From positions 309,497 through 373,496 of the forward strand of contig CAYGTV010000001.1 of assembly GCA_964353135.1 (NCBI GenBank): a stretch of DNA of 64,000 nt, written 5' to 3'. The position numbers and the translations under genes are program-made. This document shows, one piece after another, positions 9,686 to 60,942 of the stretch (position 1 is the first letter of the stretch; each line of letters opens with the position of its first letter). The DNA comes from an uncultured Candidatus Saccharibacteria bacterium. GTDB taxonomy: Bacteria; Patescibacteriota; Minisyncoccia; Phycocordibacterales; UBA918. A model generated the notes under the pieces. The model searched no databases, was not told the origin of the DNA, and saw only the letters and a program-made list of their open reading frames with translations.

Positions 9686-9687
9686 TA

Positions 9688-15200: not shown

Positions 15201-18200
15201 ATTTATTAGCGATACATTCTCATCTGCAACTCCACCATCTACCTCTGGTATGTTTGTCACATCAGCACCGTGTACGAGGTTTGTTGAATCGTACATATCC
15301 CACGCATCACCGAGCTCCGCATTGACATCTGTCCACACGGCGATCGCCGAACAGCTTGTCACTCGTTCTGCGTATTCCAAATTAAACACCCGCTCAACTG
15401 ACGTTGTGGCGCCCTCGTTACTTACCTGCATGCGTAACCTGATAGGAGTTGCAATTTGGTGGTCGGGTAAGAGTGTGTCCTGTGAACCTGCAGTTGCAGA
15501 TGTGGCACCAGTTTCTGAACCATCATCGTTACGCCAGTGGTAGTGCGTCTGAGTAAGGATGGCACCCTGCAAGGTTGTGACGCCACCAAGCTCAACCGGT
15601 GTAGATGGTGAAACTGATGCTCCAGGGACAATAACGTCACTATTGGCTGACAGGATTGCGAAGCTCACTGTGTCACCATTTAGCGCCGCATCGGTAACAT
15701 CAGCTACTACATACACACACATGGCTTGGGTGGTTAGAATCGTGACACTACCACTAAACGTAGAGCTACCGTTTATATCGCTCATACCATCTGTATCAGT
15801 ACTACCAAACTGTGGCTCTAGTCCACTGTATGTTTCACTGACACAGTTATACGGAGCTGTAGTATCTAAGTCATACAACAGGCGGATATTAGTTAATCCA
15901 GTAGTTGCATCAATAGACCCAGATTCAGCAATAGTTATATCGGTAACGGTATTGCTAGCTGTGTTTTCTCGAATCACAAATGCCCCACCAAAATATAAAT
16001 CGGCTGAAGGAATATCCACTGTGGCTTGCTGTGTACCAGTCTGAGAGACTGTTACTTCTGCGTTGATTGTGGCTTGTGCATACACATCGTATGCATTAAG
16101 ATCAGCCCCACTATTTGAAAGTCTAAAGCAGTAAGTTGCTCCCTCTGTTGCACTAGTTGAAGCAACCAGCGAAAACTCTAGCTCAAGGAATTCGTTGGTT
16201 GCTAGTGTAATCGACCCTGTAGTGTCAGTTGAGTCTCGCACCCCTGCGTTTGGTGTTTTAAAAACGGCATTTTCATCTGTCACTCCTCCAATTCCGTTAG
16301 CGATGTTAGTTGTGTCAGAACCTTCGGTTAGGTTAACCGTTGGCTGCATGTTGAACTGATCATCGGCAGCTCCGACGGCTGTCCACACCGTCACATCAGT
16401 ACAGGTTGGAGCCGCTTCTGCGAACTCTAGTTGATAGATAATTGGGCTAGAACTGGTTGAACCCTCTACTGAGACACCCATCCTAAGTCTAGTAGTTTGC
16501 CCAATCGGTAACGCTCCACGCGGAGTATCTTGGTTTCCAGCCGTCGCTGAAGTAGCACCAGCTTCTGAACCATCGTCGTTTCGCCAGTGATAGTGAGTTT
16601 GGGTTACGTCGGGACTGATTACAGTGGTCGTGTCAGTCAGGGTAACCGGGAAATTTGGTGCAATGTCAGACCCAGTAACTACCACGTCATTTGGTGGGTC
16701 TGTGATTTCGATTTCGATAGTTTGACCATCCCCTGCACTGCTGGTGATATCGGTCACGACATAGAGACAAATTGCTTGGGTCGGACCGACACCGACTGAA
16801 CTACCAGTAAACAATATCTGACCATCTGCGGCATCAAATCCATCGGTATCGGTGCTGCCAAATTGTGATTCACCACCACTATAGGACTCACTAGCGCAAT
16901 TATATGGTGCAGATGAGTCCAAATCATACAGCAGCCGTACATTAGCAAACGCTGTCGAACCATCAACCGTTCCATTTTCACGTATTGTAATATCTGACAC
17001 AGTGTTTGATGTCAAACTGTTGATCACAAATTGTCCACCAATGTAGTTGTTAGTAGTTTCTGACCTCAGCGTTGCAACCTGAGTACCCAGCGTCGACAGG
17101 TTAGAATCAGGACCAATGTTAGCGAGAGTTTCTCCAAATCTGTCGCTGACAGACCCCTCCCACCAGGCTACATACAAACGGTCATAGTTACTAGGATCCA
17201 ACGCTGGTTTTCTGATGTCACCTGGCGTGGTATTTAACGGACCAGTTTCAGTTCCCCAACTTGTCATAGCATCAGTTGATTCCTTGAAATATATATTTCC
17301 CGTACCGGCAGAACCCGGTGTATCCTGTACTGCGTATGCAACATACACGTCACCATTATTTTGATCAATCGCTATGGCTGTATCTAAAATCCCCCGACCA
17401 GTAATGTTTGTTACGACATCAGTCATAAGCGTCCACACCGAGCCGTCGTAAATCGCTGTTCTGACGTCGTCGTTATTATCAGTCAACAAGTTGTTATCAG
17501 CAACATAGGCAAAGTAGATGTTGTTGGTACTTAGATCAACCGTAGCTGACATAGCACCATCGTATTCACTGTTTTCTGGAGCGTTGTTATCGATGGATGT
17601 CCAGGTACCAGACCAAGTGGAACCATTCCAGACTTTTGAGCGGACTTCATTAGCAGAAATGTCTTGGTTAATCAGTAGCACATTGCCACCAGCTAGCGGC
17701 ATAAGCAGGTTGTGGTCGTTTCGTGCATCCAAGGGTGAGGTTCCCACTTCGATCCAGTTAGTTCCAGTCCCACAGGAAGCAGCGCAAGACACGACGTACG
17801 AATCAGAGTTGTCGTTACTGGTCAGATAAATGTCACCATCGGTCGCTTTTGTGATTGCGTGCGTGTTGATTGCGTCAGTGAATGTTGGAGTTTGTCCCGA
17901 GCTTACGGTCGCATTTACTGGCGAACTACCAAGGAGTAATGTGTCAGTCGACGTATCAAGGGCATTATAAAATAAATCATCATCAGACGTATCCATTGTT
18001 GCGATATGAATTGTGGATCCACTGTCACCAGGGGTCCAACGGTCGTACCACACGACAATGCGGATACAGTCAGTTTGGGCGTCAATAGTAACTGCAGCTG
18101 TCCATGTGCTTCCGGCGTCGGTGGTTTTACTATAAACACACGAGCCAGGACTATCTTGGTAAAAGGTATACCCTACTGTGTCCGAAATAAATACAGTTTG

Positions 18201-18392
18201 CGCACCGGTATGGTTGTTTCCTCGAGCAGACCCGTTTGCTGTACTATCAATCACCACCACGGCAGCATCAGCTATTTGAGGTGAAAATAGTCGGGAAAAA
18301 GTTGTTACCCCAAGTAAATCAAACAACAAAACTATCAGCAGAAAACTACTGAGTAATGTGCGTACATGAGTAAAATTGCGCAGTTGTTTCAT
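12249..18392 (-). CDS. Giant secreted or surface protein (2047 aa). It carries two ~340-aa internal repeat modules containing 'THYHWRNDDGSE.GATSATAG.QDT', and a conserved C-terminal domain ending ...VVYRIKVTEDQAQGDYIANITYIATPVF.
   Basis: 6.1-kb ORF with an N-terminal hydrophobic segment (LLSSFLLIVLLFDLLGVTTF). The C-terminal ~180 aa are homologous to the C-terminus of the 24604..25743 protein. Confidence 0.85.
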   Translation of the reverse strand: MKQLRNFTHVRTLLSSFLLIVLLFDLLGVTTFSRLFSPQIADAAVVVIDSTANGSARGNNHTGAQTVFISDTVGYTFYQDSPGSCVYSKTTDAGSTWTAAVTIDAQTDCIRIVVWYDRWTPGDSGSTIHIATMDTSDDDLFYNALDTSTDTLLLGSSPVNATVSSGQTPTFTDAINTHAITKATDGDIYLTSNDNSDSYVVSCAASCGTGTNWIEVGTSPLDARNDHNLLMPLAGGNVLLINQDISANEVRSKVWNGSTWSGTWTSIDNNAPENSEYDGAMSATVDLSTNNIYFAYVADNNLLTDNNDDVRTAIYDGSVWTLMTDVVTNITGRGILDTAIAIDQNNGDVYVAYAVQDTPGSAGTGNIYFKESTDAMTSWGTETGPLNTTPGDIRKPALDPSNYDRLYVAWWEGSVSDRFGETLANIGPDSNLSTLGTQVATLRSETTNNYIGGQFVINSLTSNTVSDITIRENGTVDGSTAFANVRLLYDLDSSAPYNCASESYSGGESQFGSTDTDGFDAADGQILFTGSSVGVGPTQAICLYVVTDITSSAGDGQTIEIEITDPPNDVVVTGSDIAPNFPVTLTDTTTVISPDVTQTHYHWRNDDGSEAGATSATAGNQDTPRGALPIGQTTRLRMGVSVEGSTSSSPIIYQLEFAEAAPTCTDVTVWTAVGAADDQFNMQPTVNLTEGSDTTNIANGIGGVTDENAVFKTPNAGVRDSTDTTGSITLATNEFLELEFSLVASTSATEGATYCFRLSNSGADLNAYDVYAQATINAEVTVSQTGTQQATVDIPSADLYFGGAFVIRENTASNTVTDITIAESGSIDATTGLTNIRLLYDLDTTAPYNCVSETYSGLEPQFGSTDTDGMSDINGSSTFSGSVTILTTQAMCVYVVADVTDAALNGDTVSFAILSANSDVIVPGASVSPSTPVELGGVTTLQGAILTQTHYHWRNDDGSETGATSATAGSQDTLLPDHQIATPIRLRMQVSNEGATTSVERVFNLEYAERVTSCSAIAVWTDVNAELGDAWDMYDSTNLVHGADVTNIPEVDGGVADENVSLINPNSGIRETSSATASTTITELEFAEFEFSLTSTVASAFNTTYCFRLSRQGIDINQYDQYPEVSIAAKRDFKVQQGNSVLTGTTQTITAGVDYTAPASSSLAFIRITNTNNTGAGNTTGGGSQDVLGVTAYVQNPDNIVSSITFARNAVVADTYVDWEIIEFIAQPNTDNEMLVRDANTVSMNTGQVTISGPAVSVTDDADVVVFVTGVSGDDAANDFYAAQVTADWDGANNRPVFTREATGGSNINISYAVVEYTGINWNIQRVEHTYTAAGVIETETITPVTSLDQAFIHSQKRVGAQTTVATLGHQVYLSSIGAVSFELNAAANMGVVHTSVAWVIENLQAGAGAMRVERQNGTTIGGAEPTTLSLVIVNALDAINNSSIFGNSSANGNNNAHPRAIAGLRIVNPLRYELWRSDTGTQLQYRAEIVQWPVADLAIRQNYYRFYTGNNQLTPDDAWPAGLEDLGENTSITEFDDPPGVGEILRLRMTLRAKNANWPADFYAFKLQYAERVSTCTAIGSWTDVGQAGSGEIWRGYAATGTTDGTVLSGDPPTPGDLLISVSDVAGSLEHQNQSATNTYIAFDGEDVEYDWYLEHNGAAADTVYCFRVVESDGSALSGYLQYPQLRTADFTPEVIGWRWYDDIQNETPSTPLEALNSAPTEIISQDTLALRVVLDEQKSVTGENVKFKLQFSDEITFSNPIDVVASSSCTISNEWCYIDGGGANNATITTAITGISDTCVAAGGGGCGTHNSSADYVAGHDHPALAAQEYSFTIQSQRLRSSAVYYFRLFDVASAKPVALFSTASYPAAVAESARLVFTIEGLPAATSTAGVTTGVTTTATSVDFGVLPFGTDVIAAQRLSVDTNAVEGYQVWKLAGQQLTNGGGSEILPIASTNASPGGWSTVCTALAASCVGYHTTDATLAGGSPRFAATDTYAAFDTTVSEVMYSSIPVDEAHDVVYRIKVTEDQAQGDYIANITYIATPVF
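14950..17050 (-). repeat. Two diverged tandem ~1.05-kb intragenic repeat units inside the 2047-aa gene.
   Basis: Compare gcaccagcttctgaaccatcgtcgtttcgccagtgatagtg (~16557-16597) with gcaccagtttctgaaccatcatcgttacgccagtggtagtg (~15500-15545). Both encode ...DDGSEAGATS/THYHWR in the translation. Confidence 0.5.
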
Positions 18393-20032: not shown

Positions 20033-20255
20033 CAACGAATTAACATACAGCTCTGAGTCAGAACCCGAGCTATTGCTTGTTGTTTTTGGAGGTCTGTATG
20101 TCGAATATACGTTGTAATATAAGGTTTTTTGAGTGCTTCTACGTTTCATTTGTTGGCTTGACTTCGTTCAGTCAAAAAGCCTGTTATTCCCATCACAATA
20201 TAATTTTATCAATCTTTCAAGAGGTTTGAAGGTGTTATCAACACAAACAAGGGCA

Positions 20256-21011
20256 TTATTGGAGGAAGAAATCTGCCAGAATTATTGAAAAATCTTTAAA
20301 CGTCATGCGTCCGTCATTATCAAAATCGAATAGTTGCGCTTGATTCTGCCAAGCCCCCATAAAAGCACTGATGTCTTGGAGGGTGACTTTTCCATCTTTG
20401 TTTAAGTCAGTAGTAATCCCGCTTGCTATTGCAACCCTAATTTCTTCAGGTGAGGTGTTTTCGTCAAAGTTAAATAGGCTTACTTTGTTTGCATCGTTTG
20501 TTGAAGGGGTAATTTTTTTACCTGTTCCATCACCCGCAACCAAGGTAATATCTTGTGAGCGGATCTCGTACTGTCCGGCTTTGAGAGCTCTAAATTTTAT
20601 AGATGCTACTGGATGCTTTCCTATAAAACCACGACGAAATGTTCCGCCGGTTAATTGTACGTAATCATTGGCAATAATCGGGTCTTCGGTCCATAAGGTT
20701 AGTACTGATGTACCACGGTCAACACTAAACACCTCGACTTTATCAGGTGGAAACACGACTGTAATATCTACAGCATTGACTGGCGCATGTGCCGACACGC
20801 CAACTTGTAGAGTTAAAATTTGACCAACTTCGACCGTGCGCACATCTGGAGTTAGATAAACGTAAGATTTACTTGTACTAGTTATAGTTGTGGCTCCTAA
20901 CAACAATACAGTTCCAAGCACAGCTGGAAACATATATTTAACTGTCGCAGACGACACGCGCTTGCTGCGGTAGACTTTAACTGTAGTAATAATCCAAGTA
21001 AAAGCGCTCAT
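20256..21011 (-). CDS. Small secreted adaptor-like protein with a cohesin-like beta-sandwich domain and a C-terminal dockerin (two Ca-binding-type repeats).
   Basis: Dockerin repeats: DLNKDGKVTLQDISAFMGAW ... FDFDNDGRMTFKDFSIILADFF. Cohesin-like region: TVEVGQILTLQVGVSAHAPVNAVDITVVFPPDKVEVFSVD...IKFRALKAGQYEI. Confidence 0.65.
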   Translation of the reverse strand: MSAFTWIITTVKVYRSKRVSSATVKYMFPAVLGTVLLLGATTITSTSKSYVYLTPDVRTVEVGQILTLQVGVSAHAPVNAVDITVVFPPDKVEVFSVDRGTSVLTLWTEDPIIANDYVQLTGGTFRRGFIGKHPVASIKFRALKAGQYEIRSQDITLVAGDGTGKKITPSTNDANKVSLFNFDENTSPEEIRVAIASGITTDLNKDGKVTLQDISAFMGAWQNQAQLFDFDNDGRMTFKDFSIILADFFLQ

Positions 21012-21014
21012 TGT

Positions 21015-21695
21015 TTACAAAGACGTTACCGTGTTCCTGATTTGCTCTGCCTGTAGACGTGAGAATGCTAGTGCTTCTCGTGTTTCATTCACGTTTGTTA
21101 ATATTGACAAAATTTCTTCTGAACTCGCGGACTTTCCTGCAATAAGAGCGTCGATGATATTCTTTTGTGCTAAGACTAGCTCAGCAAATAATTCACTCTG
21201 TTTTTGCTCTTCGGTCGCTAGTGCTCGCCACTGCTCTACCTTAGCCTTCTCAAACTCATCGCCAGCAGTTAGCGTGTTGAGCAGAGCAACTTGCTCTTCG
21301 TAAGCTTCAATTTCTCGATTAAACCGAGCAGACATGAGCGATTTACGATCTGAATAGAAACTTGCGCATGAACGGAATAGAACATCGAGCTCACGCAGCT
21401 CGGCTTGAGCAAGTCCACTATCAAGACGTCCAAGTAAACTATCAAACCGCATTCGTTCAGACATAGGACAGTCCCTAATAACGGATTCGGTCACACTATC
21501 AGCTCCATTACGTGCGATTGTTTCAGCAATCGTATTTAGAACTGCCTCTTGTTCTGCAACCTGTACCCGTGAAGCGCTTGTAAAAGAATCAACTCGCTCA
21601 GAGGCGATATACATCCCGAGCAAGATAGACAGAATTAGCAGTCCTGCAACAATGATAAAATTTTCACTTTTTTTGAGTACTGGGATATTAGTCAT
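21015..21695 (-). CDS. Hypothetical N-terminally membrane-anchored, mostly alpha-helical protein.
   Basis: 226-aa ORF with an N-terminal TM (FIIVAGLLILSILLGMYIA). Stop and start abut the flanking genes. Confidence 0.55.
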   Translation of the reverse strand: MTNIPVLKKSENFIIVAGLLILSILLGMYIASERVDSFTSASRVQVAEQEAVLNTIAETIARNGADSVTESVIRDCPMSERMRFDSLLGRLDSGLAQAELRELDVLFRSCASFYSDRKSLMSARFNREIEAYEEQVALLNTLTAGDEFEKAKVEQWRALATEEQKQSELFAELVLAQKNIIDALIAGKSASSEEILSILTNVNETREALAFSRLQAEQIRNTVTSL

Positions 21696-21702
21696 AGGTA
21701 TA

Positions 21703-23454
21703 TTAGCTATCTTTGGTTAATGATGTGACGTCTTTGATTTCCTTCTCTACTGCCTTTTGTGAGGCTTCAAGTGAAGCACCAAACACTGCTAGTGTATCAG
21801 CTTCAGCTTTTGTAAGCTTGTTAGTTTTGCGTGATGCCATAAGCAGTGCTCGTTGTTCTGCAACTGTCTGGTGTAGTGAGGTGAATTCACGCTGCAGAAT
21901 AGTCAACGCTTCGTTTGATTCTACTCCTACCACACCTCTAAATCGACGGTATACAAATAGCATGTACCAGACACCAAACACCAACAATAGAGACAACAGT
22001 ATAAGAGGTACGATGACTGACATTGCATTTACAACTTGTGTTCCGATCCTAATGTAGCCAGGTTCTTGGACAGCGATCCGATACACCTCAGATATTTCTG
22101 ATTGGGCTCCAAACTGATCGGTTGCACGCGCTGATAATTCATATACCCCAGTATATAACGACCCATCGGGGATGAAGGTGAACGTTCCAATTTCGTCACT
22201 TACAGTCTCATATACGTTTTGCTCACTACCAACTCGATTAAAGAAAATTTGTACAGCGGAATTTGGTCTAGTTGAACCTGTAATTACTGGTACAACATTT
22301 ACACTCATGTCAGTTGGAACATCCACAAATACTGGTCGTTCAAAGGACTCAATTGTAAATGAGAAGGTCCCAATGACACTATTGCCAGCGCGATCAAATG
22401 CCTCTACGATCACTGTGTGATAGCCAGGTTCAAGAGCCTCGAGTGTATGCGTTGTTGCCCCAGCTTCGGGTACATACTCATAAGGCTCATTGGCATCAAC
22501 CTTGATTAAATACTTTTCGATACCAGAAGTTTCCTCATCAATTTCAAATTGCAGAGTTTTTGCTGGATTTGATGGATCCGAGCTAGTGGCCAAACTTATT
22601 TTAAAGTTTGTCGGCACTAGAGTATCTACCCCCAGTCGATAGTGCTGTACACCACCCCAACCGTCTGAGTTCTGGAATTGTAAATGGAAATACGACACCC
22701 CTTCCTCTAAATCAGCCAGAGTAATAGAGCTGATAGGGTTCTCATAAACGCGTGTTGGTATACTAGAAGGACTGCTGTTTAAAAGCGTACGCACTGAAGT
22801 GACACCAGCTGGCAGCGTCCACGATAGTTCTGCAGTAGTTTGGTTTGACCAACCATCTGGATTTGGGTGGGTTGTTGACTGAATGTTAGGTGTCGCAGGT
22901 GTATTTGCTGACGGCACATACTCTACAATTACTTCAGGTGCTGGAGCCTCTGTTGCCGCACTAACAGTATATGAACCACCATTCATAGAGGTGAGGATGT
23001 TAGTTCCTCTACCGTCATTAGCTAAAACGGAACCATTAGAAAAAGACACTTGTGATGCCCCAGCCCCTTTGGTTCTAAAAGTTACTGTCACAATTCGTCC
23101 AACTGAGCCTGCAAACCCACTTGGTACTCCGCCGCTAAACGTCACAGTTCCAGCTGAATTCGAAAAGGCCGGTTCAGCTGTCCAAAGATTAAAAATTGAG
23201 CTATTTCTATTGACTGCCACTACAGACAGTTGGTTTGGATTGAATTTAAGTGTACCCTCTGCAGCGTTAACCGACTCTCCGTTGGTGCGAATTTGTACAT
23301 CGACAGAAAATGTTGCTCCAGCTTGGTAGACACCAGTGCTTGGCGATACTTGCATGACCGCCGCTTGAGCAAAACCAACAAAGCACATCCACAGCGCTAG
23401 AACAAAAATGGTTTTAAACAATGTTTGTGGAGTAATAAAGCAAGATTTAGTCAT
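21703..23454 (-). CDS. Surface protein: signal peptide, cohesin-like N-terminal domain, Ig-like middle region, C-terminal TM helix and cytoplasmic coiled-coil tail.
   Basis: ATG verified at 23454..23452 (MTKSCFITPQTLFKTIFVLALWMCFVGFAQAA). Cohesin-like: VSPSTGVYQAGATFSVDVQIRTNGESVNAAEGTLKFNPNQLSVVAVNRNSSIFNLWTAEP...TVTFRTKGAGASQVSF. TM: VIVPLILLSLLLVFGVWYMLFVYRRF. Paralog of 58916..60448. Confidence 0.7.
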   Translation of the reverse strand: MTKSCFITPQTLFKTIFVLALWMCFVGFAQAAVMQVSPSTGVYQAGATFSVDVQIRTNGESVNAAEGTLKFNPNQLSVVAVNRNSSIFNLWTAEPAFSNSAGTVTFSGGVPSGFAGSVGRIVTVTFRTKGAGASQVSFSNGSVLANDGRGTNILTSMNGGSYTVSAATEAPAPEVIVEYVPSANTPATPNIQSTTHPNPDGWSNQTTAELSWTLPAGVTSVRTLLNSSPSSIPTRVYENPISSITLADLEEGVSYFHLQFQNSDGWGGVQHYRLGVDTLVPTNFKISLATSSDPSNPAKTLQFEIDEETSGIEKYLIKVDANEPYEYVPEAGATTHTLEALEPGYHTVIVEAFDRAGNSVIGTFSFTIESFERPVFVDVPTDMSVNVVPVITGSTRPNSAVQIFFNRVGSEQNVYETVSDEIGTFTFIPDGSLYTGVYELSARATDQFGAQSEISEVYRIAVQEPGYIRIGTQVVNAMSVIVPLILLSLLLVFGVWYMLFVYRRFRGVVGVESNEALTILQREFTSLHQTVAEQRALLMASRKTNKLTKAEADTLAVFGASLEASQKAVEKEIKDVTSLTKDS

Positions 23455-24499
23455 GATGAATTTGGGTGTAATTAGCCTCAATTGCCTCTATCTCTGCCTG
23501 ACGTTTTAGGATTGATCGTCGGCGCACAATGAACCACGCACCAACTGCAGCCAGCAGCACCAACATTACAAATAGGACATATGATAAGAATTGTTCAAAC
23601 GAAAGTGTGCGTAGTTCAGCGTCTGGAACCAGAGTTGCAATGTATTCATTACCAGCTTTATCAATCGCACGTACACGGATGATGCTGTTGAGGGACTGAT
23701 CCTCAAGCACATATGGGCTTCTGGCCTCTACCCATGATACGTTTGCTCGACCCCAGATAAACGCGTCAAATTGAGTGAGGGATTCTTCCCGTACTTCATA
23801 GCGATCAATTCCTGTTTGCTTGTCAGTTGTAGTAAACGCTATGTAGTATTTACCAGCAAAGGCTAAGGCGTCCTTTTCCAACTGCAAGCTAAACGGCTGA
23901 GGTGGGACGGTATCAGCATCGATTTCTTCAGTCCATGGATCCTGGGTAATTGCTCCTAACTCTGGTAGAACTGTTATTTTGTTTGGAAACAATTCTAGGT
24001 CGGCTTCTGTTCCAAAACCGTCGTTTAGGTATGCTACGGTTTGCGAAGTAAATTGAACTGAGGCTTCGACAGTTTGACCGTCTTGTGCCAGTACAGAATC
24101 AGCCCTTATAATGACATCAAACAAGTTATTGGTCAGACGTGGATCACCTTCAATCCGTCCACAGTATCCATTTGGAATCCCACCGGCAAACGTGACCTGG
24201 GTTTTATCCTCGTTCAAAGCGGGTGTTTCAACCCAAATGCTAAAAATAGAGTCACCAAGCGACACATCGACAGGCTCAATCGGTCCACTAAAGGTTAAGA
24301 CCCCTTGGACAGCATTAACGCACTCCTCTAACTCTTCGTTTGTGTCTAGTCTAACACTTACCTTGAGGGCATCTCCGCGGGCAATTGTAGTTACACCCGG
24401 ATCAAGGTACAACGAGGCTGCTTGGCCGGCACTAGGAAAAAGTAAAACCAGAAGAAAAAATATCCCCACGGAACGTTTCATATAAATGTAGTATATCAA
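23447..24499 (-). CDS. Surface protein: signal peptide, cohesin-like domain, C-terminal TM anchor + basic tail.
   Basis: MKRSVGIFFLLVLLFPSAGQAASLYLDPGVTTIARGDALKVSVRLDTNEELEECVNAVQGVLTFSGP... C-terminal LSYVLFVMLVLLAAVGAWFIVRRRS. Its last 8 nt overlap the downstream gene's start. Confidence 0.7.
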   Translation of the reverse strand: MIYYIYMKRSVGIFFLLVLLFPSAGQAASLYLDPGVTTIARGDALKVSVRLDTNEELEECVNAVQGVLTFSGPIEPVDVSLGDSIFSIWVETPALNEDKTQVTFAGGIPNGYCGRIEGDPRLTNNLFDVIIRADSVLAQDGQTVEASVQFTSQTVAYLNDGFGTEADLELFPNKITVLPELGAITQDPWTEEIDADTVPPQPFSLQLEKDALAFAGKYYIAFTTTDKQTGIDRYEVREESLTQFDAFIWGRANVSWVEARSPYVLEDQSLNSIIRVRAIDKAGNEYIATLVPDAELRTLSFEQFLSYVLFVMLVLLAAVGAWFIVRRRSILKRQAEIEAIEANYTQIHHD

Positions 24500-24530
24500 C
24501 CGATTTCAGTTGATACCGACTATATACACA

Positions 24531-24555
24531 AACAAAAAACCCACCTCGTGGTGGG
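24531..24555 (-). terminator. Rho-independent terminator downstream of the 24604..25743 gene.
   Basis: Minus-strand transcript: hairpin CCCACC-ACGA-GGUGGG (24555-24540) followed immediately by UUUUUUGUUUGUGU (24539-24526). Confidence 0.5.
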
Positions 24556-24603
24556 AGATAGGGTCTTTTGTGTTATAACTCCAAGCTTAGAGTCCAGTTT
24601 CGA

Positions 24604-25743
24604 TTAGAAAACTGGGGTTGCTACGTATGTCAGCGTAGCAGTGTAATCGTCAGCAGCTTCCTGAAGAGAAGTCACTTCGATTTTGTACAGCACCTCAGCA
24701 GTTCCTTCTCCAGGATTGGTCGCATCTGCTGGACCATCATGTCGAAAGACTTCTACTGGTGTAGTTGAGGCAGAAACAAAGTTTACTCCCCCACTGTACA
24801 GATCTGACAGACCAGCTGTCAGCGTATCATCACTAGATGTTAGTGCCCAGTGACCAGCTTCATTTTCAGCTCCAAGAGAACCACTAGGTGATGCCCAAGG
24901 TGCAGGTGTCGATGTAAAGTCACCGTCGGCGAATCCATCGATATCTGCTCCGTTTGAAGATGTTAGCTGTTGATCTGCAGCAACTGTTACAACAAAGCCG
25001 TTTGCGGCGTTAGTTGAAACTGTTAGTGATTGCGCTGCAGTTGTTGCGTTGTCTGCTACCAGTTCACCGAAAGGAATTTCAGTGGCTGTAGACGTTTTAC
25101 CAACTGGATCTGATCCAATGGTTGTCACATCACCTCCAGCAATACCAGATACCGTAAAGGTAAAGATGGTATCAACTGTGGCAGTGACGGTAACAGCGTC
25201 AACGATTGCTACTCGAGTTTCACCAGAGTCAACTGATCCCGCAGTAACATTGATTTCGTAAGAAATCCCGGCTGTTGCTGGATTAGTGATCTGGTTTACA
25301 CCACTATCAGCGTTTAGACCGATCTGGATGATAACTTCCTGTCCTGCTCCAACTGTACCTGTACCGGAGGTAAAGGTAATGCCGGTTGCAGAGGTTGTTG
25401 CTCCCCAGGTTGCACCAGACGGTGCAGCTGCCAGAGTTACATCTGACCCATTGATGTTGAGATCGAGATCTCCTTCATCTAGAGCAGCGATTCCTGTGAA
25501 AGCGGCATCAAACGTAAGTGTGATGGTTTCACCAGCAGCTACTCCGGTTGGAGTAACAAATTCGATTGTGTGATCTGACACAACACTCGGTGCTGAGTCA
25601 GTCAACGTGTTGCTAAAAGTAGTGACATTTGCCGCCTGCGCGAATTGCAGGGTTGGAAAGCCAAGTGACCACATAATGATCGCAAGACTTGCAACTAAGG
25701 CGGTTGCTTGGAGTACAGAGAACGCATAGTTATTGCGTGACAT
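24604..25743 (-). CDS. Secreted 379-aa T/S/G-rich surface protein whose C-terminal ~180 aa are homologous to the C-terminus of the 2047-aa protein (ends ...VLYKIEVTSLQEAADDYTATLTYVATPVF).
   Basis: Signal anchor: MSRNNYAFSVLQATALVASLAIIMWSLGFPTLQFAQAA. Its N-terminal region (TFSNTLTDSAPSVVSDHTIEF) resembles the N-terminus of the 60993..62885 protein (QFSDTLSDSGPNEQSNHTMRF). Confidence 0.75.
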   Translation of the reverse strand: MSRNNYAFSVLQATALVASLAIIMWSLGFPTLQFAQAANVTTFSNTLTDSAPSVVSDHTIEFVTPTGVAAGETITLTFDAAFTGIAALDEGDLDLNINGSDVTLAAAPSGATWGATTSATGITFTSGTGTVGAGQEVIIQIGLNADSGVNQITNPATAGISYEINVTAGSVDSGETRVAIVDAVTVTATVDTIFTFTVSGIAGGDVTTIGSDPVGKTSTATEIPFGELVADNATTAAQSLTVSTNAANGFVVTVAADQQLTSSNGADIDGFADGDFTSTPAPWASPSGSLGAENEAGHWALTSSDDTLTAGLSDLYSGGVNFVSASTTPVEVFRHDGPADATNPGEGTAEVLYKIEVTSLQEAADDYTATLTYVATPVF

Positions 25744-25978
25744 ATACTCTACGTTGTATTAGCTTACAGTGCCCTTTAGCGTGGTGTGCCTCAGGGATGC
25801 GCCATATTGCTACAGCACATTGTAGTTGAGTCTCCACACTCTATCTACAAAAGATCTACTGTAAACATACCCGCTCTGACACAGGCGGCTGACCTGTATG
25901 CGTACACAAAAAACTGCGTACACTCGGCAATTACTAACTGAATTACCTCCATTGCGGATACTCTACCATTGTACTCTG

Positions 25979-26001
25979 CTCGGCTAGCCGAGATTTTGTT
26001 T
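25979..26001 (+). promoter_or_regulatory. GC hairpin plus T-run (plus-strand terminator-like) inside a 600-bp non-coding gap.
   Basis: ctcggc-ta-gccgag (25979-25992) followed by attttgttta. There is no plus-strand gene to terminate, so it could end an antisense or small RNA. Confidence 0.25.
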
Positions 26002-26300
26002 ATACACAAAAATAAAATTTTTTACCAAAATACACTCTCGCTACTGTTGAAATTTCCAAACTTTGGGTAGGAACTGGTAACAAGTGCTACAGCTAACCTA
26101 GCAAGTGAGTCACACAAAGCTGAACCTTTTGAGCTAAGTCCCACCTCGCTCTGCTTTCGTTTCGCTACAGATCGGGTGTTCTCACTTTCGTTCGAAACGG
26201 ATAAAACCTAGCGGACATCATCCATTACTTACTCAACCAACATGCCTGAAGTACAAACCTGAGCCCCACCTATTTTCTTGCCTAGACGGCATAGAAAATT

Positions 26301-26351
26301 CTGGACTCTCGTCCAGAACGGCTAAAAAGCAAAGCCTTTTGCTTTTTAGCC
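26301..26351 (-). terminator. Probable terminator region of the 26346..27446 gene: two hairpins followed on the minus transcript by AAUUUUCUAU.
   Basis: 14-bp A/T-tract stem ggctaaaaagcaaa-gcct-tttgctttttagcc (26320-26351, overlapping the TAA stop). Then ctggac-tctc-gtccag (26301-26316). Confidence 0.35.
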
Positions 26352-27446
26352 AGTCCAGTTAAAGAGTAGGATCGAGAAATCTTCTAGTCCTACATTCCCA
26401 TTTTGATTAATGTCAGCTGGCGGATCAGAATCGCCACCATTTGTTTGCCACCAAAAAATAAGGATTGAAAAGTCGATCAAGTTCACTGACCCATCTCGGT
26501 TCAAGTCAGACGGCTGGCTGGCAGAACCATCCACTCCAACAAACAACTGGAGGGTAGAGCTAAAATTACTTTCTGTAGTGAGCGGTGAGCGTCCGACGAC
26601 CGCTCGCGCTCGTAGTGTATGCTCTGCTACACTCAGAGTGGCTGTATTAAGCTGGTAAGACCACTGTCCATCGCCACCAGCAGTAACCACCTCCACCCGA
26701 GAACTGTTGTCGATATGCAACTCTACTCGTGCCCCAGCTGCTGCTTGTCCTGATACGGTAATAACATCTCCAGGATCAACCCTCTGGTTAACAACACTAA
26801 TAGTTGGAGGGATAATGATACCTGTAACATTCGTAATAGCTCCCTGAGTTACATCGAACGTGTTGTTGATGGTGATAGATCGGTTACCTCTACTGTCAGT
26901 TGTCCAAATACCCATGGTTGCAGTACCAGGATCTGCATCAACTGAGAATTGGAAATCACCATCATTGTCCGCTAAAACTGAACCGACTGAAACTGCATCA
27001 AGCAAAAAGTTTATACGACGACCAGGATAACCCTGACCGCGTACACTAATTAGAGTGTCACCCAACTCTGTGTTACTTCCCCCTCCTCCACCTGAACCAC
27101 CTCCGGAGGAACCACCTCCGCCTGAACCGGCTGGCTCAATGACACAGATCGCCGAACAAAAGTCTCCATCGTCGTTATTTCCGTCGTCGCACTGCTCACC
27201 AAATGCAGTCTGGAGAATACCATCACCACAATACGGACCAAAAAAGCATGACACATTACACTGTCGCCCCGCTATTGTCTGACTGTAGACCCCTGTCTCT
27301 CCAGGCACATCACAGTCTTCATTACCGTCAACAATACTATTGCCGCAGATGCTGAGTTCGAGAGTAGTTGTCGCAACCTGTTGCGCATCAGAAAAGGAAG
27401 GAATTACTATAGCGAATAGGCATAACAAAGCTAGTAAGAACCGCAT
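26346..27446 (-). CDS. Secreted modular protein: signal peptide, myxococcus-type cysteine-rich repeat (CGDG...GEQCDDGN.DDGD.CS..C), Gly/Ser linker, Ig-like domains, C-terminal dockerin.
   Basis: MRFLLALLCLFAIVIPSFSDA. ICGNSIVDGNEDCD...YCGDGILQTAFGEQCDDGNNDDGDFCSAIC. GSGGGGSSGGGSGGGGGS. C-terminal DLNRDGSVNLIDFSILIFWWQTNGGDSDPPADINQNGNVGLEDFSILLFNWTG, nearly identical to the C-terminus of 60993..62885. Confidence 0.75.
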   Translation of the reverse strand: MRFLLALLCLFAIVIPSFSDAQQVATTTLELSICGNSIVDGNEDCDVPGETGVYSQTIAGRQCNVSCFFGPYCGDGILQTAFGEQCDDGNNDDGDFCSAICVIEPAGSGGGGSSGGGSGGGGGSNTELGDTLISVRGQGYPGRRINFLLDAVSVGSVLADNDGDFQFSVDADPGTATMGIWTTDSRGNRSITINNTFDVTQGAITNVTGIIIPPTISVVNQRVDPGDVITVSGQAAAGARVELHIDNSSRVEVVTAGGDGQWSYQLNTATLSVAEHTLRARAVVGRSPLTTESNFSSTLQLFVGVDGSASQPSDLNRDGSVNLIDFSILIFWWQTNGGDSDPPADINQNGNVGLEDFSILLFNWTG

Positions 27447-27449
27447 AGA

Positions 27450-28394
27450 TTACCCTAACCGCTTACGTCTCATAAAGAGGAAGTACAGCACAGCAATCAA
27501 CAATGCAAAGATCGGTAGAAGTAGCGAGACCTTGTGAGCTATAGACAACCCTGCAAAGCCAAATCCTGCAGCTTGGACGGTACCATATGGCTGCACACTA
27601 AGAGTAAGGTCGCCTTCTTGCTTTAAATCGTCACCGTTAAACACACGATAGCGTGCAATGTAGCTTCCAGCCGGCAGCCTAGTTGGCAGTTCAGCAGTTA
27701 CTGTATCTGTATCGTATGGTGAGACTTTTGCTATTTTACCTATGTTTTGCACTTCTTCGAGCAGAGCTTGGCCTGAGCGATCAAATATCCTAAATTCAAC
27801 TCGTGACGGAGAAATGTCAACGTTACCAGTATTTTCAATCAGCATATCAAACCGGATTTTACCTGGGAAAAACAACCAACCAAATTTAGTTCCTTCATTG
27901 AGTTCAGCAACCGAGATTTTTCTAACCCTGAAGTCTTCTATCTGCCTATCAATAACAGTCAAGGCAATGTCTACACGAGCACCAAGCGAGATGTTAACTG
28001 AACCACGAGCGATGTCTTCATTCGCTGGCAGAGTTCTAATACGGATCGAACCAGTATATTCTTTGAATTCAGCGTCAGCTGGTACAAGCACACGTACGGT
28101 CATAGGAACTTTCTGTAGTCCTGAGGGTAGCTGTATCGGTGTTCCTTCAACAATCTCAAGCCATCCAGCTAGCTCCGGAGCGTCGATGACTATCTCCGCT
28201 TGCTGAGGAGCGGTTGGATCGCTACGAACCAAAAGAATCTGTTGTTCGTAGATTGAATTTCGTGTAAGGCTAGTATTCTTTACGTAGGGCGGTGTAATAC
28301 CAAATCCGGCGTGCACCTTAGCTACCCCCAGGCTCGCAAAGAGAACAGGTACAAGACAAAAAAGCACTAGGAACGTACGGAGTAACCCATTCAT
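27450..28394 (-). CDS. DUF916/DUF3324-like surface protein paralog: signal peptide, beta-rich ectodomain, C-terminal TM + RRKR tail.
   Basis: MNGLLRTFLVLFCLVPVLFASLGVAKVHA. ...FDMLIENTGNVDISPSRVEFRIFDRSG...GSYIARYRVFNGD...VSLLLPIFALLIAVLYFLFMRRKRLG. Its stop lies 3 nt before the next gene's start. Confidence 0.7.
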   Translation of the reverse strand: MNGLLRTFLVLFCLVPVLFASLGVAKVHAGFGITPPYVKNTSLTRNSIYEQQILLVRSDPTAPQQAEIVIDAPELAGWLEIVEGTPIQLPSGLQKVPMTVRVLVPADAEFKEYTGSIRIRTLPANEDIARGSVNISLGARVDIALTVIDRQIEDFRVRKISVAELNEGTKFGWLFFPGKIRFDMLIENTGNVDISPSRVEFRIFDRSGQALLEEVQNIGKIAKVSPYDTDTVTAELPTRLPAGSYIARYRVFNGDDLKQEGDLTLSVQPYGTVQAAGFGFAGLSIAHKVSLLLPIFALLIAVLYFLFMRRKRLG

Positions 28395-30513: not shown

Positions 30514-31728
30514 TTACTCATACCGGATTGCGTCGAGCGGGTTGAGAGTGGAAGCTCGCCTAGCGGGGAAAATTCCGGTTAAATACCCAACCCCGGCCGA
30601 GAAAATAGCAATAAATGCTAGGAAGTCTAGTGGAAATGAGAATAAACTCACGGCCTGACCCCCAAATTGACTTGCGACAATATTAAGGAATATATTTATA
30701 GCTAATCCGAACCCAACCCCCATGAGTATCCCTGTCACGCCCCCTAAGAACCCCACCACAACTGATTCAGACACAAACAGGTATTTAACATCATTTGGTG
30801 ATGCACCAATTGTCCTCATGATTCCGATCTCTTTGGTTCGCTCAAGCAACGTCACCGTCATGGTGTTAAACATTCCAATAGCAGACACAACTAAAGCAAT
30901 ACCTCCGAACGTGGCCAGAACTGCCTGCACCCCCTGAAAGATTTTTGAGGCTTGTTCAACAGTTTTAGAAAGTGCCGTAACGCGGAACCCTTGCTCTACC
31001 AATGCAGCTTCAACTAAGGGAAGACTCTCATTGTCTATGACATTAACCTGGACTCGTTCATATTCATCGATACCAACGTAGTTACGCAGTTCTGGAAGCA
31101 TCATCATAGCGTTAAGTGTTCCAGCTTCTTTGGTAATACCACGTACGATATATTCTTTCTCAAGGATAATCTCATTCACATCGTCACTACCATCATCAGC
31201 TGGTACCAACAATCTGAACGCTACCCGCTCTCCGATAAATGCCTCTGCGTCCTCGTCGGCAATCCCAAACAATTTGAGTGTAGCCGGAGAGAGCATCACT
31301 GAGGTGGTATCCTCAATATCCTCTTCTTCAAACACCTCACCATAACTTGCAGTAATACCGGCATACCTCAGGTACGGTGGCTCTACTCCCTGAATAAACA
31401 CATTACCAGTTAAGCCTTTGTAGGTTACTAGGGCTGGGAAACGTGCCAACGGTGCGGCGTCAACCACAGCCTCATTGTCTTCAAATCGACGCACCACGTC
31501 TGGTGTCAACGCTAAACCTTGAGCACCGGTTGCTGATACACCTAAAGACAACAATGAATCTCCAAACACGATCTGCTCTAGAATAATCTGCTGCAAACCA
31601 AAGCCAAGTCCTACTAAAATTACTACCGCAGCAGTTCCCACCCCCATACCTAAAATCGTTAACCACGTACGAAGTGGGTTAGTTTTAAACATTCGGGTAG
31701 ACAATTGTGCTAAATCTTGAACTCTCAT
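30514..31728 (-). CDS. ABC transporter permease, MacB/FtsX-like (N-terminal TM, large extracytoplasmic domain, three C-terminal TMs).
   Basis: LRTWLTILGMGVGTAAVVILVGLGFG ... C-terminal FtsX region: ALSKTVEQASKIFQGVQAVLATFGGIALVVSAIGMFNTMTVTLLERTKEIGIMRTIGASPNDV...YLTGIFPARRASTLNPLDAIRYE. Confidence 0.85.
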   Translation of the reverse strand: MRVQDLAQLSTRMFKTNPLRTWLTILGMGVGTAAVVILVGLGFGLQQIILEQIVFGDSLLSLGVSATGAQGLALTPDVVRRFEDNEAVVDAAPLARFPALVTYKGLTGNVFIQGVEPPYLRYAGITASYGEVFEEEDIEDTTSVMLSPATLKLFGIADEDAEAFIGERVAFRLLVPADDGSDDVNEIILEKEYIVRGITKEAGTLNAMMMLPELRNYVGIDEYERVQVNVIDNESLPLVEAALVEQGFRVTALSKTVEQASKIFQGVQAVLATFGGIALVVSAIGMFNTMTVTLLERTKEIGIMRTIGASPNDVKYLFVSESVVVGFLGGVTGILMGVGFGLAINIFLNIVASQFGGQAVSLFSFPLDFLAFIAIFSAGVGYLTGIFPARRASTLNPLDAIRYE

Positions 31729-31729
31729 A

Positions 31730-33052
31730 TTATCCTTTGTAACTTACGTCTACTCCCTGGGCAATAATTTTTTCAAAGTAACGAGTCATATCGTCTGCTT
31801 CGGACTCACTGAGGCCTAAACCTTTTGACCTAACCCCTTTCATCAACCTCTCGTTTAATTCAGATTCATCAGCCACACCAGTCACGCGGTCAGCGATTAG
31901 TTCGGTCATATTGTCTTGTTGCTGCTTACTCATCTTGATTCGATGTTCCTGAGCCAAATGTTCTTGCATTCGTTCGGCTAGTTTATCCTGGGTAAAGAAT
32001 ACTGCGTCGTTATCTTTTTTAGCCCGGAATCGGCGGATATCATCAGCAGTATGAATCACTTTCTCTACCACGCCGGCCATGTGTCGCGCCTCTTTTTCAG
32101 ACACCTCTACCCCGCCACGCTCCATTGGTAGGATGAGGCTCTTGATGAAGTGTTCGCGATCAATTCGACCCTGCAAAAAGAGATCAACTGCGTGTTCAAG
32201 TCGACCAATTTGGTCAAAACTATAGTCCTGAGTCAAGAAATTGACCATACTTTTCACCCGCCAGGTTTCTACCGAGTCATACGGATATAACCGTGCAAGT
32301 TGTTCTAGTTCAGTGACAATCGTTTCGCCTTCGCGGACTGGTTTAATTTGCTTTCGCTGCGGGTTCACCACCTCGCGCAAAATTCGGCCGTCTTTTAGGT
32401 AGTACACCCGGTGAGCGTAACTGAGGTGAGCAGCGTTGTGAGACACCATAATAATCGTTCGCTTATCAAACGTATTAATCTCGTCAATCTTGTCCATCAC
32501 CTGCTGAGTAGATACTGAGTCAAGGTTACCGGTAGGTTCGTCTGCTAAGAGAATTTTAGGGTCATTAACCATTGACCTGGCTACCGATACACGCTGTTGC
32601 TGCCCCCCTGACAGCATCGCTGGGATCTTGTGGGAGACGTGCCCTACACCAAAGCGGTCGAGTAGTGATTGAGCTCGACGCTCTCGTGTCGCTCGGTCGG
32701 CATTACAAAAAATCATCGGCAGCGCTACGTTGTCGAGCACTGACAAAGACATAATCAGGTTGAAAGACTGGAAAATAATACCCATCACGTGACGCTGGAA
32801 ATATACCCGCTCTGAAGGTGGATAAGAATACACGTCATCTCCTTTCACGAGCAGAGTCCCCTCACCTGGCGGCAATGATCCCTGGATCGAATACATGAGT
32901 GTGGATTTACCACAACCAGACGGCCCAAACAAAATAATGTACTCACCCTCAAAAATATCAGTGTTAACCCCAGTAAGAGCCTTGAATTCATTGGACTTTC
33001 CTTGGTTATAAATGATCGAAAGATCACGTGCTACGATGAAAGGTTTTGCCAT
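31730..33052 (-). CDS. ABC transporter ATP-binding protein (MacB-type partner) with an unusual ~210-aa C-terminal helical extension.
   Basis: Walker A: [14 protein letters not shown]. Signature: [14 protein letters not shown]. Walker B: [13 protein letters not shown]-loop: [10 protein letters not shown] verified at 33052..33050 ([15 protein letters not shown]), 1 nt after the upstream stop. The extension from ~aa 245 to the end has no recognisable motif. Confidence 0.85.
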
Positions 33053-33053
33053 A

Positions 33054-58863: not shown

Positions 58864-58918
58864 TAACGCGCGCCCCCTTGCGGAAGCGCGCGTTATCCTC
58901 TATTTTCTGTTGTTTTTA
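58864..58918. promoter_or_regulatory. GC-rich hairpin with a plus-side T-tract between the cohesin-like gene and the giant gene.
   Basis: taacgcgcgc-(12-nt loop)-gcgcgcgtta (58864-58895), then atcctctattttctgttgttttt on the plus strand. There is no U-tract on the minus transcript, so it is not a canonical terminator for the flanking genes. Confidence 0.3.
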
Positions 58919-60450: not shown

Positions 60451-60942
60451 TTACGAACTTTTTCTACGTGATACTGGTTTTGATGTTGTCTTTCTTCCTC
60501 CTTTTATCTGCAACGTTACTTTCTCTTTTTCATTAGGTTTAAGTAGCGGGAGTATGAGTATGAGTACACCATTTTTTATTTTTGCATCAGCCTCTTGGAT
60601 ATTGACACTTTCGGGTAAGATTATCCGCCGGTAAAAATCACCCCACACGCACTCCTCGGCGACGTAGGAGCCGGCTACTTTTTTTCTTGGGAATGCTATA
60701 TATTCTGGACGGATTCGTTTACCTTCTATGAGTACAATATCGGCGTCACCTTCGATGGATACATGCACATCATTCATATCTGCCCCAGCAGACTGCGCGT
60801 ACACAACGATCATACGCTCGGTTTGATATACGTCTACGTGCAGTTGCGCAATCCTGTCTGCGGCCGTCTCTTCAGCTTCAGACAGTAGCCCCGAATCTTC
60901 GTTGCGAACACCTCGCGTTTTGAGTCTTTGGAGAAAGGCCAT
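60451..60942 (-). CDS. Hsp20/alpha-crystallin family small heat-shock protein.
   Basis: VDVYQTERMIVVYAQSAGADMNDVHVSIEGDADIVLIEGKRIRPEY...YVAEECVWGDFYRRIILPESVNIQEADAKIKNGVLILILPLL matches the ACD core (VDVYE..LPG...I.V....L.I.GER; G.F.R...LP..VD....A...NGVL.I.LPK). Confidence 0.85.
   Translation of the reverse strand: MAFLQRLKTRGVRNEDSGLLSEAEETAADRIAQLHVDVYQTERMIVVYAQSAGADMNDVHVSIEGDADIVLIEGKRIRPEYIAFPRKKVAGSYVAEECVWGDFYRRIILPESVNIQEADAKIKNGVLILILPLLKPNEKEKVTLQIKGGRKTTSKPVSRRKSS

Follow-up and report, generated by a model that had tools for sequence, protein, structure and literature searches.

We analysed a 64,000-nucleotide (nt) stretch of DNA from an uncultured Candidatus Saccharibacteria bacterium (contig CAYGTV010000001.1, positions 309,497 to 373,496; hereafter the window, with positions counted from its first letter) with respect to the cohesin and dockerin modules encoded by a group of surface-protein genes. 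A preliminary description of this DNA had proposed a network of such modules among seven surface proteins. Every open reading frame (ORF) that it named was found, all on the minus strand, and the window holds four cohesins and three dockerins. These are distributed, however, over six distinct proteins, because the protein of 251 amino acids (aa) had been entered twice. Cohesins are carried by the 251-, 583/592-, 350- and 510-aa proteins, and dockerins by the 251-, 366- and 630/667-aa proteins. It should be noted that the lengths depend on the start chosen: 583 aa is the database gene call and 592 aa the length from a TTG at 23481, and the 630-aa protein has 667 aa when read from a TTG at 62996. 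The six genes are the following (Ig, immunoglobulin; TM, transmembrane; NTD, N-terminal domain; the classes of the modules are treated below).

20256..21011, minus strand: 251-aa protein that starts with a signal or anchor segment and carries a cohesin (~20466-20870) as well as a class-B dockerin (~20259-20414).
21703..23454, minus strand: 583-aa protein (592 aa from TTG 23481) with a signal peptide, a class-A cohesin (~22948-23364), an Ig-like stalk with Big_13, a TM helix (~21961-22017) and an 85-aa tail.
23447..24499, minus strand: 350-aa protein with a signal peptide, a divergent cohesin (~23960-24421), a stalk, a TM helix (~23525-23581) and a 25-aa tail.
26346..27446, minus strand: 366-aa secreted protein in which a Cys-rich DUF4215 repeat is followed by two Ig domains and, C-terminally, by a class-A dockerin (26349-26510).
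58916..60448, minus strand: 510-aa protein with a signal peptide, a class-A cohesin (~59945-60364), a stalk, a TM helix (~59162-59218) and an 81-aa tail.
60993..62885, minus strand: 630-aa protein (667 aa from TTG 62996) with a signal peptide, a pilin-like NTD and linker strand (~62274-62810), then a middle domain and, after a Gly-rich linker, two Ig domains with a class-A dockerin (60996-61157) at the C-terminus.

The four N-terminal domains that had been called cohesin-like are genuine cohesins, as shown by Pfam for two of them, by profile-profile comparison for all four and by a fold model for one. At the Pfam gathering cut-offs of 24.1 bits for Cohesin (PF00963) and 22.9 bits for Dockerin_1 (PF00404), the two families that the preliminary description had proposed for checking the modules, two of the four cohesins and two of the three dockerins pass. 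The Cohesin matches lie in 20256-21011 (30.1 bits) and in 21703-23481 (27.4 bits); the 350-aa (23447-24499) and 510-aa (58916-60448) proteins gave no match to this Pfam family. BLAST links all four domains to one another, and the families made up of their orthologues are mutually related at 97-100% probability in profile-profile comparison. In the case of the 350-aa family, hhalign aligned it with the 592-aa family at an E-value of 1.7e-28 (probability 99.8%), and the 510-aa protein proved to be a full-length paralogue of the 592-aa protein (E 1.2e-92 between the families). The stalk of the latter contains a Big_13 domain scoring 49.1 bits. A hidden Markov model made from the window's four N-terminal cohesin domains, when searched against all six reading frames, gave only four matches (E <= 5e-50; next best 0.49), one per protein. 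Since no protein has more than one cohesin, the window encodes no scaffoldin.

Searches of the 592- and 251-aa proteins with phmmer gave no match among PDB chains; only profile and fold searches succeeded. The AlphaFold2 (AF2) model of the 251-aa protein, based on an alignment of 62 sequences, consists of a beta-sandwich (residues 50-182; predicted local distance difference test score, pLDDT, ~90) followed by a C-terminal two-helix module (helices 211-222 and 238-249) of lower confidence. When this model was submitted to Foldseek, the top 50 PDB matches were all cohesins, with E-values down to 1.8e-8; the best structures were 2xdh, 2jh2 and 2vo8, with target TM-scores of 0.76-0.81 at 15-16% sequence identity. 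The cohesins of the 583- and 510-aa proteins are 47% identical, as compared with 23-36% for the rest of these two proteins and 25-33% between their cohesins and the others. Among the three cohesins that were compared between species, that of the 583-aa protein is the best conserved (p-distance 0.36).

The 592-, 350- and 510-aa proteins all have a signal peptide and a C-terminal TM helix followed by basic residues, in agreement with the positive-inside rule. These features place the cohesins outside the cell and leave cytoplasmic tails of 85, 25 and 81 aa, respectively. The three proteins had been described as ending in a TM helix plus a coiled-coil tail; the TM helices are indeed present, whereas significant heptad periodicity was seen only in the tail of the 510-aa protein. 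In a crude test of heptad periodicity based on 500 shuffles, the value of this tail was reached by 0.4% of the shuffled sequences and that of the 592-aa tail by 12%. Within the family, conservation is also highest in the last ~60 residues of the 510-aa tail (58916-59160), with 85-98% majority residue among 34 relatives. A tail that is both conserved and heptad-patterned suggests a conserved cytoplasmic partner.

As for the dockerins, a motif scan detected exactly six 12-residue calcium loops, with D or N at positions 1, 3 and 5 and D or E at position 12, two at each of the three C-termini (20256-21011, 26346-27446 and 60993-62885) for which dockerin repeats had been reported; each loop is followed by a helix, and no such loop was found elsewhere. 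The loop starts are 27-31 residues apart, which leaves space for one helix. In the 251-aa protein the spacing is 27 residues; this allows no more than one helix between the loops and fits an F-hand dockerin. The dockerins of the 366- and 667-aa proteins reach 26.9 and 28.5 bits with Dockerin_1, and these proteins also contain Big_6 (36.1 and 37.4 bits, respectively) and, in the 366-aa protein, DUF4215 (34.5 bits). The two modules constitute class A, whose profile matched solved cellulosomal type I dockerins first (E 9e-5), ahead of EF-hand proteins. The dockerin of the 251-aa family represents a second class (class B), ~36% identical to class A, and many orthologues of the 251-aa protein carry a precomputed PF00404 match. 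The three C-terminal modules are genuine dockerins of two classes, and the 251-aa protein does combine both types of module in one chain, as had been noted.

The two class-A dockerins (26349-26510 and 60996-61157; 54 aa) share 88.9% of their residues and 78.4% of their nucleotides, values that replace the ~95% and ~75% given in the preliminary description. Its interpretation of the pair, purifying selection rather than recent copying, is borne out. The proportion of differences is 0.73 at synonymous sites (pS), meaning that these are saturated, and 0.075 at nonsynonymous sites (pN), giving an omega (dN/dS) of ~0.03; the longest identical run of DNA is 14 nt, whereas identical DNA had been named as the sign of an assembly duplication. 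The Ig regions upstream of the two modules are only 25-45% identical. With 78% identity in DNA and saturated synonymous sites, the pair is not an assembly duplicate and is under strong purifying selection. This conservation is class-wide and not peculiar to the present genome: 50 orthologues from other species carry the class-A sequence DLNRDGxVNLIDFSILIFWWQTNGGDSDPPADINxNGxVxLEDFSILLFNWTG with almost no change, and no other segment of the family is as well conserved (87-88% majority residue; mean p-distance 0.16, versus 0.46 for the adjacent Ig region).

The two class-A proteins resemble each other beyond the dockerin. The C-terminal two-thirds of the 630-aa protein match the 366-aa family (hhalign, E 1.4e-69), and both proteins end in a common Ig-Ig-dockerin cassette. 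In a representative library of 1.84 billion proteins, which we surveyed for dockerin carriers, the invariant dockerin is mostly found behind this same Ig-Ig cassette, preceded by heads of a DUF4215 type, a pilin-head type, a type of ~440-470 aa and a few fn3 types. These heads showed no match to other window ORFs beyond pilin-like, fn3 and giant-protein segments, in a comparison that did not include a scan for enzyme domains. The small number of head types on a single cassette points to a dedicated joint and not to a versatile enzyme scaffold.

From ~11.2 kb (11243) to its end at 64 kb, the minus strand of the window forms one conserved supercluster of at least 53 kb, as deduced from the invariant order that both of its gene sets keep in relatives; this context had escaped the preliminary description. 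At the E-value thresholds applied, 909 homologues of the 592-aa protein and 216 of the 251-aa protein were counted; almost constant in length and annotated as hypothetical, they belong to Candidatus Paceibacteria, Kaiserbacteria, Nomurabacteria and Parcubacteria. A complete Nomurabacteria genome and a metagenome contig of the Joint Genome Institute (JGI) have the gene order of the window, namely fn3 protein, ABC ATPase, MacB/FtsX permease, 62x, 317, 366 (dockerin), 38x, 35x (cohesin), 587 (cohesin), 228, 248 (cohesin and dockerin), ~600, 2045 and 337, where the numbers are lengths in aa; one complete relative that has the supercluster possesses a genome of ~1 Mb. A scan of species-representative genomes retrieved 80 loci in which the order is essentially unchanged, gaps being mostly due to contig or flank ends. 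The 251-aa gene is present in all 80, the 583-aa gene in 79, the 226-aa gene (see below) in 77, the 350-aa gene in 73 and the 2047-aa gene in 57. Eighty related metagenome loci were obtained for the 510-aa protein, and in the 37 of at least 9 kb the second set is invariant: pilin-like protein (~380 aa), a protein running from signal peptide to TM helix (~355 aa), ~138 aa, pilin-head-to-dockerin protein (~640 aa), HSP20, cohesin-TM protein (~510 aa) and giant. A cluster that is invariant in ~80 species of Patescibacteria is probably central to their biology. Loci L043, L083 and many others among L004-L083 are labelled Acidimicrobiales, Azotimanducaceae or Saccharibacteria and contain the same Paceibacteria-type cluster at 40-54% identity; these records are probably mis-binned or generically labelled metagenome-assembled genomes.

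As the modules are genuine and their genes co-inherited, the simplest interpretation is that surface proteins assemble non-covalently, and in this respect the preliminary description stands. We favor, with moderate confidence, the view that the modules are non-cellulosomal plug-and-socket joints that tether secreted parts to the membrane in a conserved surface apparatus. According to this view, the dockerins would bind the cohesins in a calcium-dependent manner and so hold secreted components at the membrane, with the Ig-Ig-dockerin plugs, seated in membrane-borne cohesin sockets, tethering filaments or adhesins. The class-A dockerins of the 366- and 630-aa proteins would plug into the class-A cohesins of the 583- and 510-aa proteins, a pairing suggested by the fact that the former are 89% and the latter 47% identical. 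Through its class-B dockerin, the 251-aa protein would be attached, perhaps to the cohesin of the 350-aa protein (or to a 251-aa cohesin), and it would offer a further cohesin.

Several observations count against such pairing. The dockerin of the 251-aa protein scores 21.4 bits with Dockerin_1, just under the cut-off, its family profile fits an EF-hand pair and a dockerin equally well, and its modelled structure has a confidence of only 55-66. A mirror-tree analysis of 45 species (partial Mantel tests against the phylogenetic background) singled out no cohesin-dockerin pair; in it the class-A dockerin varied too little, and the matrix of the class-B dockerin was correlated with those of nearly all domains. 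Both the binding and the pairing are inferred. An alternative reading, with which these points agree, would have the dockerin-like ends as calcium-binding stabilisers of the EF-hand type, or as binders of host glycans or the cell wall, and the cohesin-like sandwiches as generic adhesin or spacer domains; the modules would not pair, and would occur together only because they belong to one surface apparatus. For many dockerin-like modules outside the cellulosome no cohesin partner is known, in part according to the survey of Peer et al. (2009) as summarised in PMC9012536. Still, we consider the absence of pairing a rather improbable alternative, since cohesins and dockerins co-occur within a few genes in every one of the ~80 genomes and their subtypes match, and since the class-A profile prefers cohesin-binding type I dockerins to EF-hand proteins. 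In addition, the class-A dockerin has remained near-invariant while other domains diverged to ~55% identity, which implies a conserved protein partner.

What the joints might hold is indicated by three further proteins of the supercluster (CTD, C-terminal domain).

12249..18392, minus strand: 2047-aa giant, ~2050 aa across species; its C-terminal ~170 residues (12252-12761) share homology with the CTD of the pilin-like protein.
24604..25743, minus strand: 379-aa pilin-like protein with an NTD beta-sandwich, a linker strand (VTVTATVDT, residues 184-192) and a CTD.
34656..58832, minus strand: 8058-aa giant in which DUF2341, Laminin_G_3 and Pentaxin modules recur; its gene lies immediately downstream of that for the 510-aa protein, a position that is conserved.

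AF2 modelled the 379-aa protein (pLDDT 85) as two beta domains, residues 40-180 and 194-379. The alternating linker positions V184, V186, A188, V190 and T192 are at least 96% conserved, and the linker is the only internal segment of the model with low confidence; being conserved and yet poorly defined in the predicted monomer is the behavior expected of a donor strand without its partner. The N-terminal ~200 residues of the 630-aa protein match the NTD and linker of the 379-aa family (hhalign, probability 99.1%, E 4e-19), so that this protein has a pilin-like head and linker without the pilin CTD. Conversely, residues 1878-2047 of the 2047-aa giant, a protein for which Pfam and NCBIfam gave no match, are related to residues 194-379 of the 379-aa protein (BLAST, E 6e-15). 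The idea that the pilin-like NTD or CTD is itself related to the cohesins was rejected (probability <3%).

A more speculative version of the tethering model builds on these relationships. The 379-aa subunits would form a fibre by donor-strand exchange; its tip would be the giant that ends in a pilin CTD and can act as an acceptor only, and the 630-aa protein would cap the cell-proximal end and anchor the fibre, through its dockerin, to a membrane cohesin. The assignment of base and tip follows from the 630-aa protein being donor only and the giant acceptor only. We propose this fibre-anchor version tentatively and regard it as doubtful. The same guarded status applies to the idea that the Paceibacteria possess a fibre distantly related to the Pam pili described below, which would have a giant lectin-rich tip (~2050, possibly also ~8000 aa), a dockerin-cohesin base in place of a TM helix or sortase, and a cohesin tail coupled to an intracellular partner; we consider this rather improbable. 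If true, it would be the first cohesin-dockerin joint in pilus anchoring.

The difficulties of the fibre are of several kinds. In the 379-aa family, 31 of 43 members match the Pam pilin model NF058581 (CPR_Pam_pilin_C), with a best E-value of 1e-7, and every one of them stays below the curated cut-off of 55 bits; the protein of the window scores 18.4 bits. The Foldseek matches of the 379-aa model are tandem-Ig, strand-complementing adhesins (ClfB, SdrG, FnBPA and the CFA/I tip) with low global TM-scores, in a PDB set that contained no Pam structure, and the predicted fold is compatible with a pilin without being decisive. No relation was detected between the pilin CTD and the C-terminal domain of the 8058-aa giant and of a 644-aa protein (probability <2%). 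The 366-aa protein has no pilin-like or donor-strand similarity at its N-terminus, and the fibre-anchor idea can consequently not cover all dockerins. Finally, the candidate chaperones, which run from a signal peptide to a TM helix and are described below, are suggested as such by matches to Ig-like domains only.

The same evidence bears on the alternative that the joints, in place of anchoring a donor-strand-exchange fibre, give structure to a surface layer or sheath or display adhesins directly, with the 379-aa protein being an adhesin or an S-layer-type protein instead of a pilin. The resemblance of its model to adhesins of the MSCRAMM type (microbial surface components recognizing adhesive matrix molecules), even at low global TM-scores, the sub-threshold similarity to Pam, the dockerin-bearing 366-aa protein without a pilin-like part, and the wealth of lectin-type modules in the giants all agree with it. 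We nevertheless judge it unlikely: the conserved, alternating linker, unstructured in the monomer, fits the logic of donor and acceptor better than that of a lattice, and so does the occurrence of a pilin-like CTD at the end of a giant and of a head and linker without CTD in the 630-aa protein.

The preliminary description had compared the system to a cellulosome. A cellulosome-like scaffold, which would recruit varied dockerin-bearing catalytic or binding proteins into a large extracellular complex, could account for the genuine modules, for the one protein with both of them, as in adaptor scaffoldins, and for the occurrence of the invariant-type dockerin on several head types in the representative library. 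The analogy is only partly apt, and a cellulosome-like organisation is not supported: the cohesins are single, with no multi-cohesin scaffoldin, and there is no dockerin-bearing enzyme. No glycoside hydrolase was found in any ORF of the window, as it had correctly stated, nor was any other catalytic domain, carbohydrate-binding module (CBM) or surface-layer homology (SLH) domain detected by Pfam, the 8058-aa giant included. The dockerin carriers are, moreover, a few families with one Ig-Ig cassette, and gene content and order are fixed across species, unlike the variable repertoires of cellulosomes; we therefore consider a scaffold of this kind very improbable. That the two similar dockerins are an artefact of assembly or recent duplication, for which their high protein identity and nothing more would speak, is refuted by the divergence of their DNA (78% identity, pS 0.73, no identical run above 14 nt) and of their flanks and by the independent conservation of both loci in other genomes.

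The remaining genes of the cluster include the following.

21015..21695, minus strand: 226-aa protein with an N-terminal TM segment (residues 13-31) and a helical domain, invariably located between the 592- and 251-aa genes.
27450..28394, minus strand: 314-aa protein in which a signal peptide and Ig-like domains are followed by a C-terminal TM helix; candidate membrane-anchored chaperone.
30514..33103, minus strand: MacB/FtsX-type permease (404 aa) and ABC ATPase (457 aa), matching FtsX, MacB_PCD and ABC_tran in Pfam, in conserved synteny.
60451..60942, minus strand: HSP20-family small heat-shock protein (Pfam HSP20, 37.7 bits), between the dockerin and cohesin genes of the second set.

The 226-aa protein matched no family. 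In the mirror-tree analysis, the matrix of the invariant dockerin (26349-26510) correlated best with that of this fast-evolving protein (partial r 0.39, p 0.001), which may be a rate artefact. According to BLAST and hhalign, the 314-aa protein has paralogues of 329 aa (11243-12232) and ~355 aa (63371-64000+) and in part of a 550-aa protein (9688-11340). This family, whose members run from a signal peptide to a TM helix, gives weak Ig-like/E-set matches, WxLIP_PGBD being among them in 9 of 63 members, and one member matches a fimbrial chaperone model at an E-value of 0.012; no sequence match was found for these proteins in the PDB. A cluster of the WxL/Csc type was considered and left as no more than a resemblance, given that the weak WxLIP_PGBD matches are confined to those nine members and that the pilin-like CTD has no WxL match. 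The 550-aa ORF combines a region like this family (weak WxLIP_PGBD) with a C-terminal LytR_C domain; its start probably lies further downstream, because the called start overlaps the redoxin gene (9129-9851) by ~160 nt. At 63371-64000, the window ends inside a gene, and the listed ORF of 162 aa covers only the C-terminal part of its product; the equivalent in relatives has ~355 aa and is preceded by a further pilin-like gene of ~380 aa.

All 37 loci of 9 kb or more keep the HSP20 gene in this position, which is an odd place for a cytoplasmic chaperone. Between the 251- and 2047-aa genes lies a conserved gene (18434-20149) for a 571-aa protein with an acidic, Thr-rich N-terminal half of low complexity and a TolB-like beta-propeller in the C-terminal half. 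The 644-aa protein (28486-30420) has a Tad-like hydrophobic segment at its N-terminus, and its C-terminus is similar to the last ~170 aa of the 8058-aa giant. Terminator-like hairpins with T-runs are located just after the 379-aa and 366-aa genes (24540-24562 and 26298-26319), and promoter-like sites are present at 25819-25865, within the 602-bp gap that precedes the 379-aa gene. Judging from these sequence signals, all of them consensus matches only, the 379-aa gene may be a transcription unit of its own, possibly a highly expressed one. Neither Rfam families nor transfer RNAs were found in the 64-kb window.

Bacteria of the candidate phyla radiation (CPR), or Patescibacteria, represent a substantial part of bacterial diversity and seem to be host-attached, and the Paceibacteria are their largest class. 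To our knowledge, the machinery of attachment is barely known outside the Saccharibacteria. The proposed joint would show how secreted fibres and giant adhesins stay on a cell without an outer membrane, and would extend cohesin-dockerin biology past the scaffolding of enzymes. A near-invariant dockerin together with its cohesin could also serve as an orthogonal affinity pair for protein engineering. The hypotheses are concrete and cheap to test, as the recombinant modules have 60-150 residues. Our search of the literature for cohesin or dockerin in combination with CPR, Patescibacteria or Parcubacteria retrieved no publication describing this system.

With the type I and type II systems of the cellulosome (Clostridium/Acetivibrio thermocellum), the modules of the window share their folds and the duplicated F-hand dockerin; as in the cellulosomal type, the dockerin has an internal two-fold symmetry, with DFSIL(I/L)F.W in both repeats. 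The arrangement of a cell-bound cohesin holding a secreted dockerin protein and the adaptor-like protein with both modules are likewise reminiscent of the cellulosome. In contrast, the present system has neither a multi-cohesin scaffoldin, nor a dockerin-bearing enzyme, CBM, or SLH or sortase anchor; its anchor is a TM helix with a cytoplasmic tail, and its repertoire of cargo is small.

Another point of comparison is provided by the Pam pili of a Saccharimonadia parasite (Troman et al. 2026; bioRxiv 10.64898/2026.03.03.709456), which comprise the pilins PamA/B, the TM-anchored, PapD-like chaperones PamC/D and the TM-anchored terminator PamR as anchor. The Pam pilin has an N-terminal beta-sandwich and a linker strand that is donated to the incomplete C-terminal Ig domain of the next subunit; cohesins, dockerins, Paceibacteria, a MacB transporter and a giant protein are not mentioned in that paper (bioRxiv 10.64898/2026.03.03.709456). 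Both systems belong to CPR lineages and have a two-domain pilin or, as predicted here, pilin-like protein with a conserved linker, as well as neighbors that carry Ig-like domains between a signal peptide and a C-terminal TM helix, and the matches to NF058581 are consistent, even if sub-threshold. By analogy, a CTD-only protein, here a giant, would be the tip, and a protein with head and strand only would be the base, in a role comparable to that of PamR. The differences are that the curated cut-off is not reached, that the class is of the Paceibacteria type and not Saccharimonadia or Microgenomatia, and that the proposed anchor is a dockerin-cohesin joint instead of a TM helix on the terminator. 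Because of the threshold, and because the chaperones are candidates, we have not filed the system as a member of the Pam family, although it would work in a similar way.

Cohesins and dockerins have also been encountered in anaerobic methanotrophic (ANME) archaea, where the proteins were proposed to function in extracellular complexes and in cell-cell interaction (PMC9012536). There, too, the microbes are non-cellulolytic and dependent on partners, and the role was inferred from genomics. The ANME proteins vary between strains and include multi-cohesin proteins resembling scaffoldins, whereas the set of the window is small, single-cohesin and strictly conserved.

The closest relatives in structure are non-cellulosomal. 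The best structural matches are pairs of Archaeoglobus fulgidus (2xdh) and Clostridium perfringens (2jh2, 2vo8, 2w1n), which, like the proteins described here, have one cohesin per protein and no link with cellulose. As in the 251-aa protein, the A. fulgidus protein has a cohesin and a dockerin in one chain. Systems of this type were surveyed by Peer et al. (2009), as far as summarised in PMC9012536, and specific binding has been verified for archaeal non-cellulosomal cohesin-dockerin pairs (PMC9012536). Compared with these, the system of the window has its cohesins on TM-anchored Ig stalks and its dockerins behind Ig-Ig on pilin-like or Cys-rich heads, all of them fixed in a supercluster that is restricted to CPR bacteria. 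In summary, the system belongs with the non-cellulosomal cohesin-dockerin systems and is not a cellulosome.

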